Assembly: GCA_016926955.1 (NCBI GenBank)
Contig: JAFGNN010000001.1
Span: 29,968 to 93,967, forward strand
Direction: 5' to 3'
Length of the DNA: 64,000 nucleotides
DNA from: Spirochaetales bacterium
GTDB taxonomy: Bacteria > Spirochaetota > Spirochaetia > Treponematales > UBA12059
Positions 8,183 to 13,749 of this stretch are shown piece by piece; positions within the stretch are counted from its first letter, which is position 1; each line of letters starts with the position of its first letter. Both the position numbers and the translations under genes were made by a program. The notes under the pieces are model-generated. The model was not told the DNA's origin. It saw only the letters and a program-made list of their open reading frames with translations, and made no database searches.

Positions 8183-10195
8183 ATGCGCGCACGCCCGACA
8201 GCCATCCGACATCTCGCCTTGGCCCTGGTCCTCCTGTCCCCGCTCGCCGAGCCGGCCGCTGAGGCGGAGGCGCCGGAACGCATCGTCGTCGTCAGCGACG
8301 ACAAATACCCGCCCTACATCTTCCGCGATCCGGACGGCGCGCTCCAGGGCATCCTGGCGGACCAATGGCGCGCGTGGGAAGCGGCGACGGGAGTCCGGGT
8401 AGAGCTGAGGGCGATGGATTGGAACGAGGCGCTCGCGGCGATGCAGCGCGGAGAGGCCGACGTCATCGACACAACGTTCCGGACCCTGGAACGCGAGGCG
8501 TCGTGGGACTTCTCCAAACCCTACGCGGACATCGAGGTGCCTATATTCGTCCATCGCGACGTTTCGGGTATCGCCAAGCCCGCGGACCTGCGGGGTTTCC
8601 GCGTGGCGGTCAAGGCCGGAGACGCCTGTGTCGAACAACTGCGGGCGCTCGGCGTCCGCGACCTGGTGGAATACCCGAGCTACGAAGCAGTAGTTTCCGC
8701 AGCGGCCCGCCGCGACATCCTCGCGTTCTGCGCGGATTTTCCGCCCGCCTTGCATTTCCTTTACAAGGCCGGAGCCTACGACGAATGGCGCATCGCCTTC
8801 CGGCTCGAGGGCGGAAGCTTCCACCGCGCGGTGGCCAAGGGTGAGCGCGAGCTGCTCGCCCTCGTGGAGTCGGGCTTCGCCGCGATTCCCCGCTCGGCCT
8901 TGGACGACATCGACCGGGCCTGGCTCGGCCAGCCGCTTCCCGCGCTCGAGCAGGCGCGCCGGCTCCGCGTCCTGGCCCTGATCGCCACAGCCCTCCTCGC
9001 GCTGGCCCTGTTGCTCGGCGTGGTCGCGGCGGTCCTTCGCCGCAGGGTGGCGAGAGCCACCGAAGAGCTCATGGGGAAAATCGCGGAGCTCGAGGCCAGC
9101 GAAAACCGCAACCGGGCCTTCATCGAAGCCTTGCCCGACCTCTTCTTCACCTTCGACCGCGACGGGCGCTACCTCGACTACCGCACCTCGTCGCCCGAAC
9201 TGCTCGCGTTGCCGCCCGAGGCGATGATCGGTCGCCTGATTTCCGATATGCCCTTTCCGCCCGCGGTGGCTTCGCTCTACCTCGAGGCCATAGCCAAAGC
9301 GCTCGATTCGCGAAAGCTCGTGGCCATCGAATACGAGCTCGCGGTGCTGACCGGACCGCGCCGCTTCGAAGGCCGCCTCGTGCCAGTCGGGACGGACAGG
9401 GTCCTGTTCGTCGCGCGCGACATCACCGAGCGCTCGCGACAGGACGCGAGGCTCCGCGAGTCGCTCGCTGAAAAGGAAGTGCTGCTCAGGGAGATACACC
9501 ACCGCGTCAAGAACAACCTGCAGGTGGTATCGAGCCTCGTCGCGCTGCAGCGCGACTCCATCCACGATCCGCGCGACCTCGAGCTGATGGCCGAGACCGA
9601 GCACCGCATCAAGGCCATGGCACGAATCCACGAGATACTCTACCGGAGCGGCAACTTCTCCTCGCTGGACGCGGGGGAGTACGTGAGCGCGATCGCGGAC
9701 GACCTCGCCGAGGCATCCGGCGCTCGAATCGAGGCAGTCCTGGAGGGCGGCCCCTTCCCGATCATGCTGGACGACGCCGTGCCCCTCGGGCTCGCGACCA
9801 ACGAGCTCGTGACCAATGCCGTAAAGTACGGCCGCGCGCCGGGCTCAGGAGTCCAGTCCGTCCAGGCGACGCTCACGAATTCAGGCGGGTGCTACACGCT
9901 CCTCGTCACTGACTCGGGTCCCGGCCTGCCCGATGGCTTCGATCCGAGGCGTGACGGGAACATGGGTTTCACCCTGGTGCGCGCCCTGGCGTCGCAGCTC
10001 CGCGCCGAACTGGCCGTCGTTCCGGGTCCGGGAGCGCGCGTCTCGCTTTCGTTCAAGCCCGGAACCGACGAGCGGCCCTCCGGAAACGGCCCGAAGACCG
10101 CGTCCGAGGGTCCGCCCGCGTCAGGCGTTCAGCAACCCCAACCACAGGGTCCGCAGGGCTCCGCCGCCTCGCGCGAGGCTCGTCCGGAGGCATGA
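8183..10195 (+). CDS. Sensor histidine kinase (SBP_bac_3-type sensor, TM, PAS, HisKA_2, HATPase)
   Basis: DDKYPPY motif; EIHHRVKNNLQ H-box; NELVTNAVKYG N-box; DSGPGLP G1 box. Confidence 0.9.
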   Translation: MRARPTAIRHLALALVLLSPLAEPAAEAEAPERIVVVSDDKYPPYIFRDPDGALQGILADQWRAWEAATGVRVELRAMDWNEALAAMQRGEADVIDTTFRTLEREASWDFSKPYADIEVPIFVHRDVSGIAKPADLRGFRVAVKAGDACVEQLRALGVRDLVEYPSYEAVVSAAARRDILAFCADFPPALHFLYKAGAYDEWRIAFRLEGGSFHRAVAKGERELLALVESGFAAIPRSALDDIDRAWLGQPLPALEQARRLRVLALIATALLALALLLGVVAAVLRRRVARATEELMGKIAELEASENRNRAFIEALPDLFFTFDRDGRYLDYRTSSPELLALPPEAMIGRLISDMPFPPAVASLYLEAIAKALDSRKLVAIEYELAVLTGPRRFEGRLVPVGTDRVLFVARDITERSRQDARLRESLAEKEVLLREIHHRVKNNLQVVSSLVALQRDSIHDPRDLELMAETEHRIKAMARIHEILYRSGNFSSLDAGEYVSAIADDLAEASGARIEAVLEGGPFPIMLDDAVPLGLATNELVTNAVKYGRAPGSGVQSVQATLTNSGGCYTLLVTDSGPGLPDGFDPRRDGNMGFTLVRALASQLRAELAVVPGPGARVSLSFKPGTDERPSGNGPKTASEGPPASGVQQPQPQGPQGSAASREARPEA

Positions 10196-10346
10196 TCGGA
10201 GGCGTCGGCCCCCCGGGTCGACGGCCGCGCGCTCGCCGCGCCCCCCCGGTCCGCAGCCCGCCCCCCGGCGTCGTTGAGTCCGGCTGGAACAACGGACCTG
10301 CCTGTCGCGGCGAGCTCAGCCGAGACTGTCGGCGCCGCGCTGAAGT

Positions 10347-10364
10347 TCAGTTCAGATACCCCAT
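10347..10364 (-). other. Micro-ORF MGYLN* with strong RBS, downstream of attenuator-like terminator
   Basis: Minus strand GGGAGG-N6-ATG GGG TAT CTG AAC TGA. Confidence 0.3.
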
Positions 10365-10415
10365 TTCGAGCCTCCCTGTCTTTCGTTCCCCGACGCGGTT
10401 CGGCGTCAGGGCTTT

Positions 10416-10445
10416 AAAACGAAAAAGCCCCCGACCGGGGGCTTC
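10416..10445 (-). terminator. Intrinsic terminator (attenuator terminator and/or terminator of the cyclase gene)
   Basis: Minus strand AAGCCCCC-GGTC-GGGGGCTT then TTTCGTTTT. Confidence 0.8.
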
Positions 10446-10467
10446 ACGACGGACCATCCGCGCGCGC

Positions 10468-10536
10468 CTACGCCCGACCTTCGGCTCCGAGGACGGGATA
10501 ATAGAAGTAGGCCCCGACGTGGACGTTCCGTTCCAT
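10468..10536 (-). CDS. Putative Tyr/Phe-sensing leader peptide MERNVHVGAYFYYPVLGAEGRA (22 aa)
   Basis: TAC TTC TAT TAT codon cluster; promoter directly upstream; terminator about 23 nt after stop. Confidence 0.55.
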   Translation of the reverse strand: MERNVHVGAYFYYPVLGAEGRA

Positions 10537-10543
10537 AGGTACG

Positions 10544-10572
10544 ATGATGCACGCCCGGGCGGGCGCCGTCAA
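10544..10572 (-). promoter_or_regulatory. Sigma70-type promoter for the leader peptide
   Basis: TTGACG-N17-CATCAT, 7 nt before ATG 10536; the -35 overlaps the cyclase stop codon. Confidence 0.55.
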
Positions 10573-11189
10573 GGGCGGTAGCGCCAGGCCGCTCCGATTA
10601 CGGATGAGCTTTCGTCGAGCGCCGTGAAGTCATGCCCCGCTTCGCCCACCGCCTGCCGGAACGCATCGGTCACGAGGATCTCGCCCGCGCCGGCCGTGTC
10701 CTCTCCGAGCTTGGAGGCGGCGTTGACCTCGCGTCCGAAGACGTCCGAGTCCCCGATGCGCAGCATCGTTCCATAGCCCAGCCCGACGCAGAGCAGGACC
10801 TTCTCCTCGTCGGCCCGGCCCGTGTTGTAGGACGCGCAGGCGTGCTGCATGGAGACAGCGGCCTGCAGGGCCTTGGCGGGTTTGCGGAAGATGACGAGCA
10901 TGCTGTCGCCCTCGGTCTTGAGCAGGATGCCGTCATTGGCCTCGAGCACGGGCACCAGGATGCGTTCGGATTCGAAGATGGTCTGGAGGAAGTGGATGAT
11001 CCCGAATTCCGCGACGTTGCGCGAGAAGCCCGAGAGGTCGGTGAACATGACCGCCCAGTCCTCGCCGAACAGGTCCCAGATACGCTGGTCGATCCTGGCG
11101 CGGTCGGCGCCGGGAGCCATGCGTTGCTCGATGAGGCGCTCGAGTCGCTCCTCGGATGCGGATAGGCCGATGCGTCCACGATAGGGCAT
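10569..11189 (-). CDS. Stand-alone class III adenylate/guanylate cyclase domain protein
   Basis: FTDLSGFS, KTEGDS, DVFGREVNAASKL motifs; purine-rich RBS before ATG 11189. Confidence 0.85.
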   Translation of the reverse strand: MPYRGRIGLSASEERLERLIEQRMAPGADRARIDQRIWDLFGEDWAVMFTDLSGFSRNVAEFGIIHFLQTIFESERILVPVLEANDGILLKTEGDSMLVIFRKPAKALQAAVSMQHACASYNTGRADEEKVLLCVGLGYGTMLRIGDSDVFGREVNAASKLGEDTAGAGEILVTDAFRQAVGEAGHDFTALDESSSVIGAAWRYRP

Positions 11190-11267
11190 GCTTTCCCCCT
11201 TGCCGCCATGGTATGGTCCGCGTGCCGACGGAGCAAGGGAAAAGCGACGGACATAAGGAACTCGGAC

Positions 11268-12257
11268 ATGGAAAACGCGACACCCGGTTTCCGCTTGGTG
11301 CTGGCCCCGCTCCACGGGGTGACGGGCCTCGCGTTCCGGAAAGCCTACTTCGCGAGCTTCCGCGGCTTCGACGCCTGCGTGGCTCCCTTCATCCTCGCCG
11401 CCAAGGTCAAAACCTCCGGGCAGAAGCATCTCCGCGAACTTGAGCCGGAGCGGCAGGCGCGGCTTCCCCTCGTGCCGCAACTGCTCGGCGACGACGCGGA
11501 GGCCTTCGTCGCGACCGCTGCCGCGCTCGCGGGCTCGGGCTACCGCGAGGTGAACTGGAATCTCGGCTGTCCCTACCCCATGGTGACGAAGAAGGGCCGC
11601 GGAGCGGGACTCCTGCCGCATCCGGATCGGGTGGATCGCTTCCTCGACGAGGTCGTTCCGCGCCTCGGGACCTCGCTGTCGGTCAAGGTCCGGCTCGGGC
11701 TCGGGAGCCCCGACGAGATCCTCGAGCTGATGCCGGTGCTGGCGCGCTACCCGCTTGTATCGGTGACCATACACGCGCGGCTCGGAATCCAGATGTACAG
11801 AGGAGCGGTCGACCTGGACGGCTTCGCGCGCGCCGCGGAGAGCTGCCCCCATCCCGTTGCCTACAACGGGGACCTCCGAGACGAAGCGGCCTTCGATGCG
11901 CTCCGCGCTCGATTTCCCTCCGTACGCGAGTGGATGGTCGGACGATGGGCCCTCTACGATCCTTTCCTTCCCGCCCGCCTCAAGCGCCTCGCCCCCGACC
12001 CGGACCCTTCCGCGACGCTCCGGACCTTCCACGACGACCTTTACGCCCTCTACCGCGAGGCGCTCTCGGGACCGGGCCACGTTCTTTCGAAGATGAAGGA
12101 AGCCTGGACCTACTTCGGCCGCTCGCTTGCCTGCCCGGCCCGCGCCCTCGAGGCGCTCGCCCGCGCCAAGGGCTTCGCCGACTACGAAGCGGCCGCCGGG
12201 GCGGCCCTCGCCGATGGGTATCGCGGATCGCCGGCTCCGGCGGCGCGAGGTCGCTGA
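11268..12257 (+). CDS. tRNA-dihydrouridine synthase family protein
   Basis: LAPLHGVT, NWNLGCP, GRGAGLL, SVKVRLG, TIHAR, YNGD, MVGR motifs. Confidence 0.9.
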   Translation: MENATPGFRLVLAPLHGVTGLAFRKAYFASFRGFDACVAPFILAAKVKTSGQKHLRELEPERQARLPLVPQLLGDDAEAFVATAAALAGSGYREVNWNLGCPYPMVTKKGRGAGLLPHPDRVDRFLDEVVPRLGTSLSVKVRLGLGSPDEILELMPVLARYPLVSVTIHARLGIQMYRGAVDLDGFARAAESCPHPVAYNGDLRDEAAFDALRARFPSVREWMVGRWALYDPFLPARLKRLAPDPDPSATLRTFHDDLYALYREALSGPGHVLSKMKEAWTYFGRSLACPARALEALARAKGFADYEAAAGAALADGYRGSPAPAARGR

Positions 12258-12266
12258 CAGGGAGCC

Positions 12267-12289
12267 GCCCGGAAGCCTCGTGACACCCT
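12267..12289 (+). repeat. Short dispersed repeat CCCGGAAGC(T/C)TCGTGACACC, copy 1
   Basis: Near-identical copies at 22959-22981 (inverted), 37862-37884 and 37894-37916. Confidence 0.7.
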
Positions 12290-12859
12290 TCAGGGCTTGC
12301 GGATAACGAAGGTGGAATCGATCAGCGCGGCCAGCCGGGCCAGGTCTGGATCGGAAGCACCCGAAAGCCCGAGATCCCCGATGACGTCCGAACGTTCGCG
12401 GTCGAGCCAGGCCCAGAGCCGCGCGGGGCCGCCCTGGGCGACCTTGAGCATGGCGGCGATCTCGTCGCCTCCGAACAGCTTGTACTCGCCCTTCCATACC
12501 AGGTGGAAGGTCTTGCCGTCCCCGCCGGCCACGAAGCGCGGCGGGGCGCCTGCCGCGGCGGGGGCGGCCTTCGTCGCGGAGGCGCCGGAGCGTCCGCGCG
12601 ACATCTCGAGCTCCTCGCCGAGGCGTTCGAGCTTCCCGACTTCCATGTTGTAGCGGTGGACCCGTGCCTGCTCGATCAGGAACTCGAGCCCCTCCGCGTC
12701 GAGTTCCGAGGCGAGCTCCACGAGCTCGGCCCGGAGCCGTTCGAGGACGGCGTCCTTGCCGGCCGGCTTCTTCGCCCGCTTGGGAGTCCCGTTCGGGCCG
12801 GCCTTCCCCGTGGCCTTCGCTTTTCCCCTGGCGGATTCCGCCCCCGCGACCTTTGCCAT
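12290..12859 (-). CDS. Hypothetical protein with Lys/Ala-rich N-terminus
   Basis: ATG 12859 directly after the GerMN gene; coherent protein-like composition. Confidence 0.65.
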   Translation of the reverse strand: MAKVAGAESARGKAKATGKAGPNGTPKRAKKPAGKDAVLERLRAELVELASELDAEGLEFLIEQARVHRYNMEVGKLERLGEELEMSRGRSGASATKAAPAAAGAPPRFVAGGDGKTFHLVWKGEYKLFGGDEIAAMLKVAQGGPARLWAWLDRERSDVIGDLGLSGASDPDLARLAALIDSTFVIRKP

Positions 12860-12873
12860 GACGCCCCCGAAAT

Positions 12874-13749
12874 TCAGAAGGAATTGCGCGAGAGCGGCTT
12901 CCCGATGTAGAAGCCCTCGGCGCCGAGATAGTCGCGGCGCTCGCCCTCGACGAGGAATTGCACGTCGGTGACCGTCGCGAAGGCGGTGGCCGTCCACACG
13001 ATCTGCTTGACCTGGGCCGCGTAACCCTCGAGCCCCATGTGGTTGAACTGAAAGGCCTCGTTGAAGTTGAGCGTGGCCGTGCTTCCCGATATGCGCACCG
13101 GCGAGAGCAGGCGGGTTCCCTCGGGAATCGCGCTGATGAGGTGTTTCGCCACTTCCGAGGCATTCGGGCCTTCGAGCAGGGCGTTGAGCGCGTCGGTCAG
13201 CTGTGAGCCCGTGTCGGGGATGGAACGACGCGACTCGACGCGGACGATGACCCCGTCGTCATCGATGCGCACGAACCAGAGGCTGGCGACGCGGGTCTTG
13301 GGCGCCGGCGTCGCGGACGCGGGCTTGGTCGGGCTTCCGCCCGACGGCGTTCCGGCGCCCGGCGTCGCCGTCGGCGCGCCGTCCGCGGGAGTCTCGGGCT
13401 CGCTCCCGCCCACGGGTTCGGGTTCCGGTTCCGGTTCCGCGAGGGCAGAAGCGTCGCCTTCCGGCGCGACCACCACCACTCCGCCGGGTGCCGTCCCGGA
13501 CGGCGCGCTTTCCGGACCCTCGTCGCTTTCGGACGGCTCGGAGCCGACCGGCGATGACGGCGGAGCGGCCTCGGAGCCGCGGCCTTTCAGGAGCTCGCTG
13601 AAGCCGGTTCGGTCGAGGGTCTCGCGGATGGCTGGCAGGTTGAGGAAAAAAACGACGAAGACGACGGTGAAAGCCGCGAGCCAGAGCAGGCAGCCGACTC
13701 CGGGCTTGTTCGAGGACCGGGAACTTCGTGAGGAACGCCGGGTGGCCAT
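12874..13749 (-). CDS. GerMN domain membrane-anchored protein
   Basis: N-terminal TM, Pro/Ser/Glu linker, ALLEGP...SAIPEGTRLL...QIVWTATAFATVTDVQFLVEG. Confidence 0.85.
   Translation of the reverse strand: MATRRSSRSSRSSNKPGVGCLLWLAAFTVVFVVFFLNLPAIRETLDRTGFSELLKGRGSEAAPPSSPVGSEPSESDEGPESAPSGTAPGGVVVVAPEGDASALAEPEPEPEPVGGSEPETPADGAPTATPGAGTPSGGSPTKPASATPAPKTRVASLWFVRIDDDGVIVRVESRRSIPDTGSQLTDALNALLEGPNASEVAKHLISAIPEGTRLLSPVRISGSTATLNFNEAFQFNHMGLEGYAAQVKQIVWTATAFATVTDVQFLVEGERRDYLGAEGFYIGKPLSRNSF

Follow-up and report, generated by a model that had tools for sequence, protein, structure and literature searches.

A stretch of 64,000 nucleotides (nt) from the genome of a Spirochaetales bacterium (GenBank assembly GCA_016926955.1, contig JAFGNN010000001.1, positions 29,968 to 93,967), which we call the window and whose own numbering is used throughout, carries on its minus strand at 10416-10572 a compact module made of a promoter-like site, a short open reading frame (ORF; the mini-ORF) with a run of tyrosine codons, and an intrinsic terminator. 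In related genomes, homologous modules precede tyrS2, a paralogous gene for tyrosyl-tRNA synthetase (TyrRS), and the DNA that follows the module in the window retains what reads as the two ends of tyrS2. We conclude that the module is probably a tyrosine-sensing leader-peptide attenuator of a family that controls tyrS2, that the tyrS2 remnant has been kept in the genus of the window genome, and that the long frame of this remnant would be entered by a −1 slip of the ribosome.

The module lies directly downstream of a cyclase gene. The first-pass annotation of this DNA had picked out a TTGACG-N17-CATCAT promoter overlapping the cyclase stop codon, a 22-residue ORF with YFYY and no 5' leader, complementarity between GCCTAC and GTAGGC, and a GC hairpin with a U-tract. 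All of these are present, at 10572-10544 for the promoter, 10536-10468 for the ORF and 10445-10416 for the hairpin, and the overall layout, which had been likened to that of ribosome-mediated attenuators, is borne out by the Tyr-run modules that precede tyrS2 in relatives. The parts, in the order of transcription, are as follows.

10567..10572, minus strand: −35-like hexamer TTGACG, which contains the cyclase stop codon TGA (10571-10569); invariant in three genus genomes and two further contigs.
10544..10549, minus strand: −10-like hexamer CATCAT, 17 nt after TTGACG and 7 nt 5' of the leader ATG; invariant in the same genomes and contigs.
10468..10536, minus strand: leader mini-ORF MERNVHVGAYFYYPVLGAEGRA, 22 codons plus TAG, with the ATG at 10536-10534 and the TAG at 10470-10468.
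10507..10531, minus strand: 5' strand of the long stem (region 1) in the minimum-energy fold, with the same pairing in the three-genome consensus fold.
10498..10509, minus strand: control codons TAC TTC TAT TAT (Y F Y Y); Tyr runs occupy codons 8-14 in 13 of 13 distinct leaders.
10473..10479, minus strand: GGTCGGG at the end of the mini-ORF, proposed 5' half of the antiterminator, pairing with CCCGGTC in stalled-ribosome folds.
10449..10473, minus strand: 3' strand of the long stem (region 2), with GTAGGC, in the minimum-energy fold.
10433..10439, minus strand: CCCGGTC, the end of the terminator 5' arm plus the loop, proposed 3' half of the antiterminator in stalled-ribosome folds.
10416..10445, minus strand: intrinsic terminator, with a hairpin at 10445-10424 (9-bp stem with six G-C pairs, loop GGTC) and a T tract to 10416.

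No Shine-Dalgarno (SD) sequence stands 5' of the mini-ORF ATG (10536), and the −10-like hexamer 7 nt before this ATG implies an mRNA without a 5' leader, the transcription start being placed from the sequence. The genome has a GC content of 67.7%, with TAT making up 21% of its Tyr codons and TTT 9% of its Phe codons. The 125-nt RNA folds at −58.4 kcal/mol (z −2.7), and one of 200 shuffles was equally stable. In this minimum-energy fold, GCCTAC (10512-10507) pairs with GTAGGC (10471-10466) within the long stem, the aromatic codons lie in the loop of that stem, and the terminator forms a separate hairpin. Shuffled sequences contain 0.2 ± 0.4 promoter-like sites per 3 kb, and the real 3 kb contain this one alone; for terminator-like sites by themselves the count does not exceed chance (two seen, 1.5 expected in 3 kb). 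Scanning 9500-11200 against Rfam at E values up to 10 returned nothing credible (best match RNAI, 17.5 bits against a threshold of 47, E 2.9), and the mini-ORF peptide had no match in Pfam or NCBIfam. Two other readings of the mini-ORF were dropped: as the precursor of a ribosomally synthesized and post-translationally modified peptide, because no modifying enzyme lies nearby and the Tyr run alone is conserved across the family, and as a membrane peptide, because it has no hydrophobic span and, again, only the Tyr run is kept.

The decisive sequence evidence that the module exceeds chance is its conservation across genomes. We compared the window genome with two other species of its genus, G001 and G002. 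Over the module span 10416-10572, 144 of 158 columns (91%) are invariant in the three genomes, against 238 of 298 (80%) in the last 298 nt of the cyclase coding sequence, 15 of 44 (34%) in the spacer 3' of the terminator, and 29-34% in neutral-looking spacers. The mini-ORF reaches 65 of 69 columns (94%) and the terminator 27 of 30. The changes sit where a promoter, a mini-ORF and a terminator would tolerate them. Three positions vary in the 17-nt promoter spacer, which shows four changes in metagenome contigs; the mini-ORF differs by TTC to TTT (in G001 and G002), by GCG to GCA, and at one codon that is GTC, ATC or ACC (V, I or T); the remaining changes lie in the stretch between stop codon and hairpin, where there is also an indel, and in the hairpin loop, whose T in the window is C in G001 and G002, turning a G-U pair into a G-C pair. 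Two further relatives, found as DNA metagenome contigs, add a synonymous change, a P to T replacement and, in one contig, TTC to CTT (F to L); both promoter hexamers and all three Tyr codons are unchanged in them, so that the Tyr codons are invariant in five genus-level variants.

Within this genus the module is easily found, and outside it sequence similarity alone did not reach far. A blastn search of 41 relatives with the intergenic stretch matched the module in the two genus genomes alone; three other matches of 40-46 nt came from query sequence lying opposite the kinase tail and are not the element. The module is single-copy in the window genome. A metagenome scan with back-translated HVGAYFYYP gave one contig, almost identical to G002, and no new diversity. 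On the RNA side, no run containing the stretch turned up, and two metatranscriptome runs from the study of the probable source yielded no contig, a result that is uninformative about expression. Cyclase synteny was likewise uninformative: catalytic-domain orthologues exist in 31 of 42 genomes of the same family of Spirochaetota, the downstream DNA differs, and a covariance model applied to the cyclase loci recovered the element in G001 and G002 only, the other 27 loci scoring at most 13.8 bits. Applied to 151 genomes of the order, the same model, built from three sequences, recovered the three genus genomes and six weak matches of at most 27 bits, five of which were terminator look-alikes or poor.

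The sixth weak match (G013, 23.2 bits) has not kept the stem, and its leader peptide, MDRFRSAQAYYYPILTAARRA, is homologous to that of the window. Its layout is CTTGCA-N17-TATAGT, 6 nt, ATG, MDRFRSAQAYYYPILTAARRA, a hairpin with T7, and AGGAGG-N6-ATGGGGTAC. The gene 3' of this leader is a tyrS (TIGR00234 252.8 bits, cut-off 113.8; PF00579 2.7e-58), which we call tyrS2. A TyrRS match is found in 41 of the 42 family genomes, and the G013-type paralogue in 10 of 42, distributed over 7 of 12 genera at 58-69% identity. The sole TyrRS of the window genome is a housekeeping tyrS located elsewhere (382.1 bits, 33% identical to the tyrS2 of G013), and that genome has no tyrS2 paralogue. In all 10 family loci tyrS2 is preceded by a Tyr-run mini-ORF and a terminator, and indeed by the full module of promoter, Tyr-run mini-ORF, terminator, SD and ATG GGG TAY.

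The leaders of this family differ in sequence and share a plan. Their frames span 20-26 codons, with Tyr runs of two to four codons (or Y.Y.Y) at codons 8-14 such as YYY, YYYY, FYY, CYY, HYY, YAYCY and FYYYF; CGGG or CCGG (a YCGGG/CCGG motif) stands near the end of the ORF; and a GC hairpin with T5-9 follows in 14 of 14 leader rows. By eye, −35- and −10-like hexamers occupy the matching position before 14 of 15 leader rows, and the promoter-like pair ends 6-7 nt before the ATG in most rows (9 nt in one). The first-pass annotation had proposed control by Tyr or Phe. Tyr stands, with runs in all 13 distinct leaders, and Phe falls away: most leaders have none, and one close relative has Leu in its place with the Tyr codons unchanged. 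It had also looked for an aro, phe or tyr biosynthetic gene as the natural target; the target in the family is an aminoacyl-tRNA synthetase gene, tyrS2.

A scan of species-representative genomes with the SD-start pattern of tyrS2 gave 18 loci, namely 12 tyrS2 cassettes and six chance matches. The 12 cassettes comprise the 10 family genomes again, one new locus with a leader, and one new locus without a leader within 450 nt, and all lie in metagenome-assembled genomes (MAGs) labelled Spirochaetes, Spirochaetota, Treponemataceae or Rectinemataceae. A pattern scan of 401 genomes of the phylum gave no match, with a fixed 8-nt spacing between SD and ATG that was too strict and only two family genomes in the sample. 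At the gathering threshold, no Rfam family, T-box included, matched any of 12 tyrS loci.

Several loci depart from the common arrangement. The new locus without a leader, L090 in a Rectinemataceae MAG, has the out-of-frame SD-ATG GGG TAT described below and neither a Tyr-run mini-ORF nor a T run in the 450 nt upstream, so the start cassette can exist without the attenuator. Conversely, L059 (G051:C56) encodes a third type of TyrRS, 36% identical to that of tyrS2, behind a Tyr leader (MDAMNVNAIYYYRSYSTRLPRGISRG) with a 15-bp terminator, and its start is an ordinary in-frame SD-ATG. L055 and L082 (G005) have about 260 nt of extra DNA between the leader terminator and the tyrS2 SD, where most others have about 25-70 nt. 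At G018:C151:24761-25535, two neighbouring TyrRS-like matches, to query residues 8-127 and 129-279 with 37-38% identity, lie in different frames and share about 20 nt, which may reflect a broken gene or another frame change. Among the nearest TyrRS2 relatives outside the family, P0003-P0005, are proteins of 651-762 residues in which a long Pro-rich extension follows the synthetase part at the C terminus.

From this anatomy, homology and conservation, which are observed, we infer the following course of events. Transcription would begin at or beside the A of the mini-ORF ATG and give an mRNA without a 5' leader. With ample Tyr-tRNA, the ribosome would pass YFYY, the long stem and the terminator would form, and transcription would stop at about 10416. 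With scarce Tyr-tRNA, the ribosome would stall at the Tyr codons and mask region 1 of the long stem, which would leave GGUCGGG at the ORF end free to pair with CCCGGUC in the 5' arm and loop of the terminator; the terminator would then fail, and RNA polymerase would read on.

Comparison across the family lends some support to such a switch. Every leader folds so that the first part of its mini-ORF is paired with the last, leaving the Tyr codons in the intervening loop, and each has its terminator further 3'. When a ribosome is placed on a Tyr codon in the model, GGUCGGG pairs with CCCGGUC and encloses a small middle hairpin. The antiterminator partners co-vary among leaders, as in G013, where GCGUCGGG goes with CCCGACGC. 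In a test of cognate pairing, with two genus rows excluded as near-duplicates, the ORF ends paired with the terminator arm and loop of their own leader at a mean of −9.96 kcal/mol, against −8.13 kcal/mol with those of other leaders, and 56 of 20,000 permutations reached the observed value. Modelled stalling on the Tyr codons brought the terminator probability below 0.6 in 5 of 14 leaders (G001, G002, L049, L054 and L058).

Downstream of the terminator, the window keeps a second set of features, each with its counterpart in tyrS2.

10371..10375, minus strand: Shine-Dalgarno GGAGG, 6 nt 5' of an ATG; the same SD-start block stands before 12 of 12 tyrS2 genes.
10347..10364, minus strand: short SD-served frame ATG GGG TAT CTG AAC TGA (MGYLN and stop), five codons; the start is TTG in G001 and G002, which still serves as a start codon.
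10356..10362, minus strand: proposed −1 slip site G_GGG_TAT, which would place a Gly codon on four G's in the ribosomal P site and a Tyr codon in the A site.
10129..10362, minus strand: tyrS2 remnant, 77 codons plus TGA in the −1 frame (GVSELN...EAAEPCGPCGWGC and stop), open in three genus genomes.
10129..10170, minus strand: C-terminal tail EAAEPCGPCGWGC and stop codon, in common with the tails of full-length TyrRS2, GP[CST]G[WFYA]GC before the stop.

The SD-start block GGAGG-N6-ATG GGG TAT (10375-10356) is invariant in 33 of 45 columns (73%) within the genus. The remnant frame, beginning GGG GTA... at 10362 in the window, stays open over 77, 82 and 80 codons in the three genus genomes and has the same end, ...AEPCGPCGWGC. 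The N-terminal anchor and the tail stay in one frame in all three genomes despite length differences of 9 and 15 nt, both multiples of 3. The tail is 79% invariant, and among the three genomes eight of its codons vary synonymously only and one non-synonymously. Its motif recurs at the C terminus of 5 of 10 TyrRS2 proteins (..SWGPCGAGC, ..SGPSGFGC, ..TGPCGFGC, ..VGPSGYGC and ..GGPTGWGC). We considered the motif as a general C-terminal tag and rejected this, as it occurs a single time in a six-frame scan of the window genome and in 1 of 150 TyrRS representatives.

Since it keeps about six N-terminal tyrS2 codons (GV.ELN, compared with GV.NEGL) and the Cys-rich TyrRS2 tail, joined by a variable Ala/Gly-rich linker, the remnant is, as judged by its sequence, a derivative of tyrS2 whose catalytic body was deleted in the genus. 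It is not a synthetase: the frame does not match TIGR00234 or PF00579 and lacks the catalytic Rossmann-fold body with the HIGH and KMSKS regions. The frame contains no ATG, GTG or TTG among its 94 open codons, and ORF lists therefore miss it. A gene on the opposite strand does not explain the conservation of the tail, because the kinases of G001 and G002 stop shortly after their HATPase domain and do not reach the tail block, which in G002 does not share the kinase frame either. The pattern suggests a control cassette kept by selection and driving a predicted protein of 77 codons, with the tyrS2 start, a linker and the ...PCGPCGWGC tail. As a guess from its three Cys residues and CGPC motif, the tail might serve metal or redox chemistry.

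These features revise the earlier description of the module as an orphan with a non-coding output. It is true that no full-size gene follows; a conserved 77-codon frame without a start codon does, together with its SD and start (10129-10375), and the module appears to be the control cassette of a deleted synthetase that still drives the tail of that synthetase; the same module precedes tyrS2 in 10 of 10 family loci. As a separate observation, the start (10347-10364) and the end (10126-10143) of the remnant share TGGGGT-NN-CTGAAC (ATGGGGTATCTGAAC compared with TTGGGGTTGCTGAAC), which may be chance, given the W-G-C codons, or may be a mark left by the deletion event.

The start of the remnant and of tyrS2 itself lies out of frame. 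In 12 of 12 tyrS2 genes and three of three remnants, the frame served by the SD and ATG or TTG stops after 5-8 sense codons (7-8 in the tyrS2 genes, where it begins MGY), and the productive frame, at −1 to it, has no start of its own and overlaps the short frame. In L055, a stop codon of the long frame lies four codons 5' of GGG with no start codon between, and the first 24 codons of the long frame, as displayed, contain no ATG, GTG or TTG in L057, L053, L056, L058 and L079. Directly after the proposed slip site the long frame codes for N-[DE]-G, kept with third-position variation, whereas T-[TKR]-x would result from the ATG frame at the same place. In the long frame, the invariant A that precedes ACG falls on a first codon position. 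The C/T change in TAY is synonymous solely in the ATG frame. TyrRS2 residues 7-8 align with residues 11-15 of solved TyrRS, and the nearest ordinary TyrRS2 relatives (at most 51% identity) start 8-14 residues before the same helix. In practice tyrS2 genes are mis-called: some database entries for TyrRS2-like proteins are truncated or fragmentary, P0007 for example beginning at residue 57, and ORF finders do not see the remnant.

The sequence G_GGG is invariant in 15 of 15 cases (12 tyrS2 genes and three remnants). With 6-8 nt between SD and ATG, the slip codon GGG is about 9-11 nt from the SD, and the genome has genes for tRNA-Gly(CCC), tRNA-Val(UAC) and two tRNA-Tyr(GUA). The genome has three other SD-[AGT]TGGGGTAY sites, and the start frame is very short at the site in the window alone. 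Given these frame relations, which are observed, we infer a second checkpoint throughout the family, at which initiation on the SD-served AUG GGG UAY would put the ribosome one base out of frame and lead to a stop after 5-8 sense codons, unless the peptidyl-tRNA-Gly moves one base 5' on G_GGG with the Tyr codon still undecoded in the A site; after such a shift GUA would be read, and from the remnant the small protein would be produced. The simplest reading of the arrangement seems to be a −1 slip on G_GGG prompted by slow decoding of the Tyr codon. More tentatively, and with less confidence than in the account just given, we suggest that tyrS2 is switched on by a natural hungry-codon −1 slip stacked on the Tyr attenuator, and that in this genus the switch may have outlived the enzyme and now drive the Cys-rich tail as a small starvation-induced protein that has its own function.

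Several results weigh against this account. For the attenuator, the terminator of the window itself has a modelled probability of 0.95-0.96 with or without a stalled ribosome at equilibrium. In a transcript cut after the loop, its 5' arm is paired at 0.71 with the ribosome at the stop codon against 0.47-0.68 with the ribosome on the Tyr codons (0.28 without a ribosome). In the cognate-pairing test the window comes 8th of 12 for pairing with the terminator it carries, the antiterminator duplex beats 95% of mononucleotide shuffles in just 3 of 14 leaders, and the consensus fold of the three genus genomes has no compensatory change among 40 pairs, because these sequences are too alike. The loop U of the window gives G-U pairs where G001 and G002 have G-C. 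On balance these tests favour an antiterminator in the family, while that of the window itself is weak. For the remnant, the middle part is 29% invariant, the case rests on three species and one near-identical contig, and the 77 residues belong to no Pfam or NCBIfam family and have no homologue among longer proteins at E values up to 10. For the slip, no conserved hairpin lies 3' of the site, where the consensus fold has −0.18 kcal/mol; G_GGG read with an empty A site differs from a classical heptamer; and the stop of the short frame overlaps the Leu or Ile codon of the G-[LI] motif of the long frame (NTGA, NTAA or NTAG) in 10 of 12 tyrS2 genes and three of three remnants, by eye.

Because of this overlap, termination followed by restart is a live rival to the slip, though in our judgement an unlikely one. 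It keeps the same attenuator and remnant, and has the long frame entered by restart at the overlapping codon, CTG within CTGA in the window. The overlaps are TTGA, CTGA, TTAA or ATAG, and 6 of 12 tyrS2 genes and all three remnants have TTG or CTG at this place; the other six tyrS2 genes have TTA, ATA, CTA/ATT or GTA, which are not known start codons. The protein-type constraint on the long frame, seen in N-[DE]-G and its third-position variation, begins 5' of the overlap codon. Restart would also reverse the regulatory logic: scarce Tyr-tRNA would stall ribosomes on the short frame's Tyr codon and so make restart rarer. We keep the −1 slip as the preferred entry into the long frame.

Next in standing is an explanation of why the module was kept at all: that the terminated leader RNA of about 120 nt, or the 22-residue peptide, acts in trans. 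The leader is 94% invariant, above what synonymous drift in a plain mini-ORF allows, and its AU-rich UUCUAUUAU is exposed in a loop on a long stem, in a fold like that of small regulatory RNAs; the abstracts of PMC7968998 and PMC7298713 offer a precedent in rnTrpL and peTrpL of Sinorhizobium. Set against this, the SD-start block (73%) and the tail (79%) stand out from the 29-34% around them, and this conservation points to an output in cis. The module has one copy in the genome, and no target turned up, none having been sought. A trans-acting role is possible alongside the attenuator and remnant and is no longer needed to account for them; as the explanation in its own right we find it improbable.

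That the module is a decaying relic, left without function after a recent loss of tyrS2, with a hairpin that merely ends the cyclase mRNA, is very unlikely. The enzyme body is indeed absent, the antiterminator of the window is weak in models, and the terminator is the first after the cyclase stop; the origin that the first-pass annotation had allowed for when it mentioned a relic is thus correct in that the enzyme body was lost. The decay is not, because the module is under what looks like purifying selection: the module is 91% and the tail 79% invariant while coding DNA is at 80% and spacers at 29-34%, eight of nine variable tail codons vary synonymously only, and the promoter hexamers are invariant although the spacer between them varies. 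Least likely of all, and hardly in contention, is Tyr-controlled readthrough as antisense transcription that tunes the convergent kinase (8183-10195, plus strand) at low Tyr-tRNA, for although the genes converge, readthrough past 10416 would reach the kinase 3' end within about 220 nt and the kinase bears a family 3 solute-binding domain (PF00497, 4.6e-25), this leaves the conserved SD, start, frame and tail unexplained, the module has a plain cis target in tyrS2-bearing relatives, and no antisense-specific feature was found.

Upstream of the module, the cyclase ORF (10569-13163, minus strand, 864 codons) ends in a Guanylate_cyc domain (PF00211, 1.2e-07). Its only Pfam domain is at residues 703-851; the first approximately 700 residues match nothing in Pfam and are 60% identical in G001, compared with 88% for the catalytic end. 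Downstream, the next large gene is the convergent sensor kinase (8183-10195, plus strand), with SBP_bac_3, PAS_4, HisKA_2 and HATPase_c domains. Its ORF at 10058-10195 runs about 45 codons beyond the stops of the G001 and G002 kinases (after ..ARVSL[AS]FTP..), an extension that may reflect a lost stop codon or an over-long ORF call and that shares 67 nt with the 3' end of the remnant frame on the minus strand.

Several known systems can be compared with the attenuator family. Classical leader-peptide attenuation is represented by the pheM leader of E. coli pheST and, as a prediction before trpS and leuS in Streptomyces, in passages of PMC1262725. Like pheM/pheST, the family has a short ORF with a run of cognate codons, a terminator and a cognate synthetase gene, and the position of the ribosome is thought to select between terminator and antiterminator. 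Unlike pheM/pheST, its leaders use Tyr, and the mini-ORF lacks an SD and starts 6-7 nt after the −10; the family would also have a second, translational checkpoint, the synthetase is deleted in the window, and there is no Rfam, Pfam or NCBIfam relation.

Synthetase genes for tyrosine are controlled elsewhere by other means. B. subtilis tyrZ encodes a second, inducible TyrRS. In the T-box systems of tyrS and tyrZ, as here, the signal is a shortage of charged tRNA-Tyr and the targets include a second TyrRS of Thermus-like type, the best solved-structure matches of TyrRS2 being 6bqy and 1h3e. A T-box binds tRNA directly, whereas here the ribosome would do the sensing, and no Rfam family reached threshold in the window stretch or the 12 tyrS loci. 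T-box control of tyrS in Firmicutes is described in passages of PMC1262725.

The proposed slip has its closest parallels in recoding. Release factor 2 is autoregulated through a +1 frameshift in its gene, prfB, where a slowly decoded codon gives the P-site tRNA time to shift into the productive frame. Both systems would rely on an early A-site codon tied to the pathway of the gene itself, with fast decoding leading into a short dead-end frame; unlike prfB, the shift proposed here from sequence is −1 rather than +1, depends on a sense Tyr codon rather than a stop, and would occur at codons 2-3, directly after initiation. The SD spacing that favours −1 shifts in dnaX resembles the roughly 9-11 nt found before the slip codon. 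The proposed mechanism shares with dnaX and with hungry-codon shifts the −1 direction, an SD about 9-11 nt 5' of the slip codon and, as in laboratory shifts, a dependence on an empty A site; unlike dnaX, it has no X_XXY_YYZ heptamer and no conserved hairpin downstream. Passages of PMC5009743 describe the −1 frameshift of dnaX with its upstream SD-like stimulator and hungry-codon leftward frameshifting in E. coli, whose natural use for starvation-specific products they call unclear. The attenuator RNA rnTrpL and peptide peTrpL of Sinorhizobium meliloti lead a life of their own (abstracts of PMC7968998 and PMC7298713); unlike them, the module in the window has an output in cis, the remnant frame. 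Among the papers searched, we found no Tyr leader or frameshift for tyrS, and none that names tyrS together with programmed frameshifting.

Tyr-leader attenuation of tyrS genes, predicted here for Spirochaetota and with mini-ORFs lacking any 5' leader, would extend the reach of a mechanism known for pheST. In 12 of 12 tyrS2 genes, the sole SD-served start lies one base out of frame, beside a codon for the enzyme's own amino acid. If the slip is true, hungry-codon frameshifting would here serve naturally to sense an amino acid, in a −1, sense-codon analogue of the prfB switch. In the genus of the window genome, a control cassette that appears to have been retained by selection after deletion of the enzyme, and to drive a small Cys-rich tail, suggests that the tail has a role of its own.

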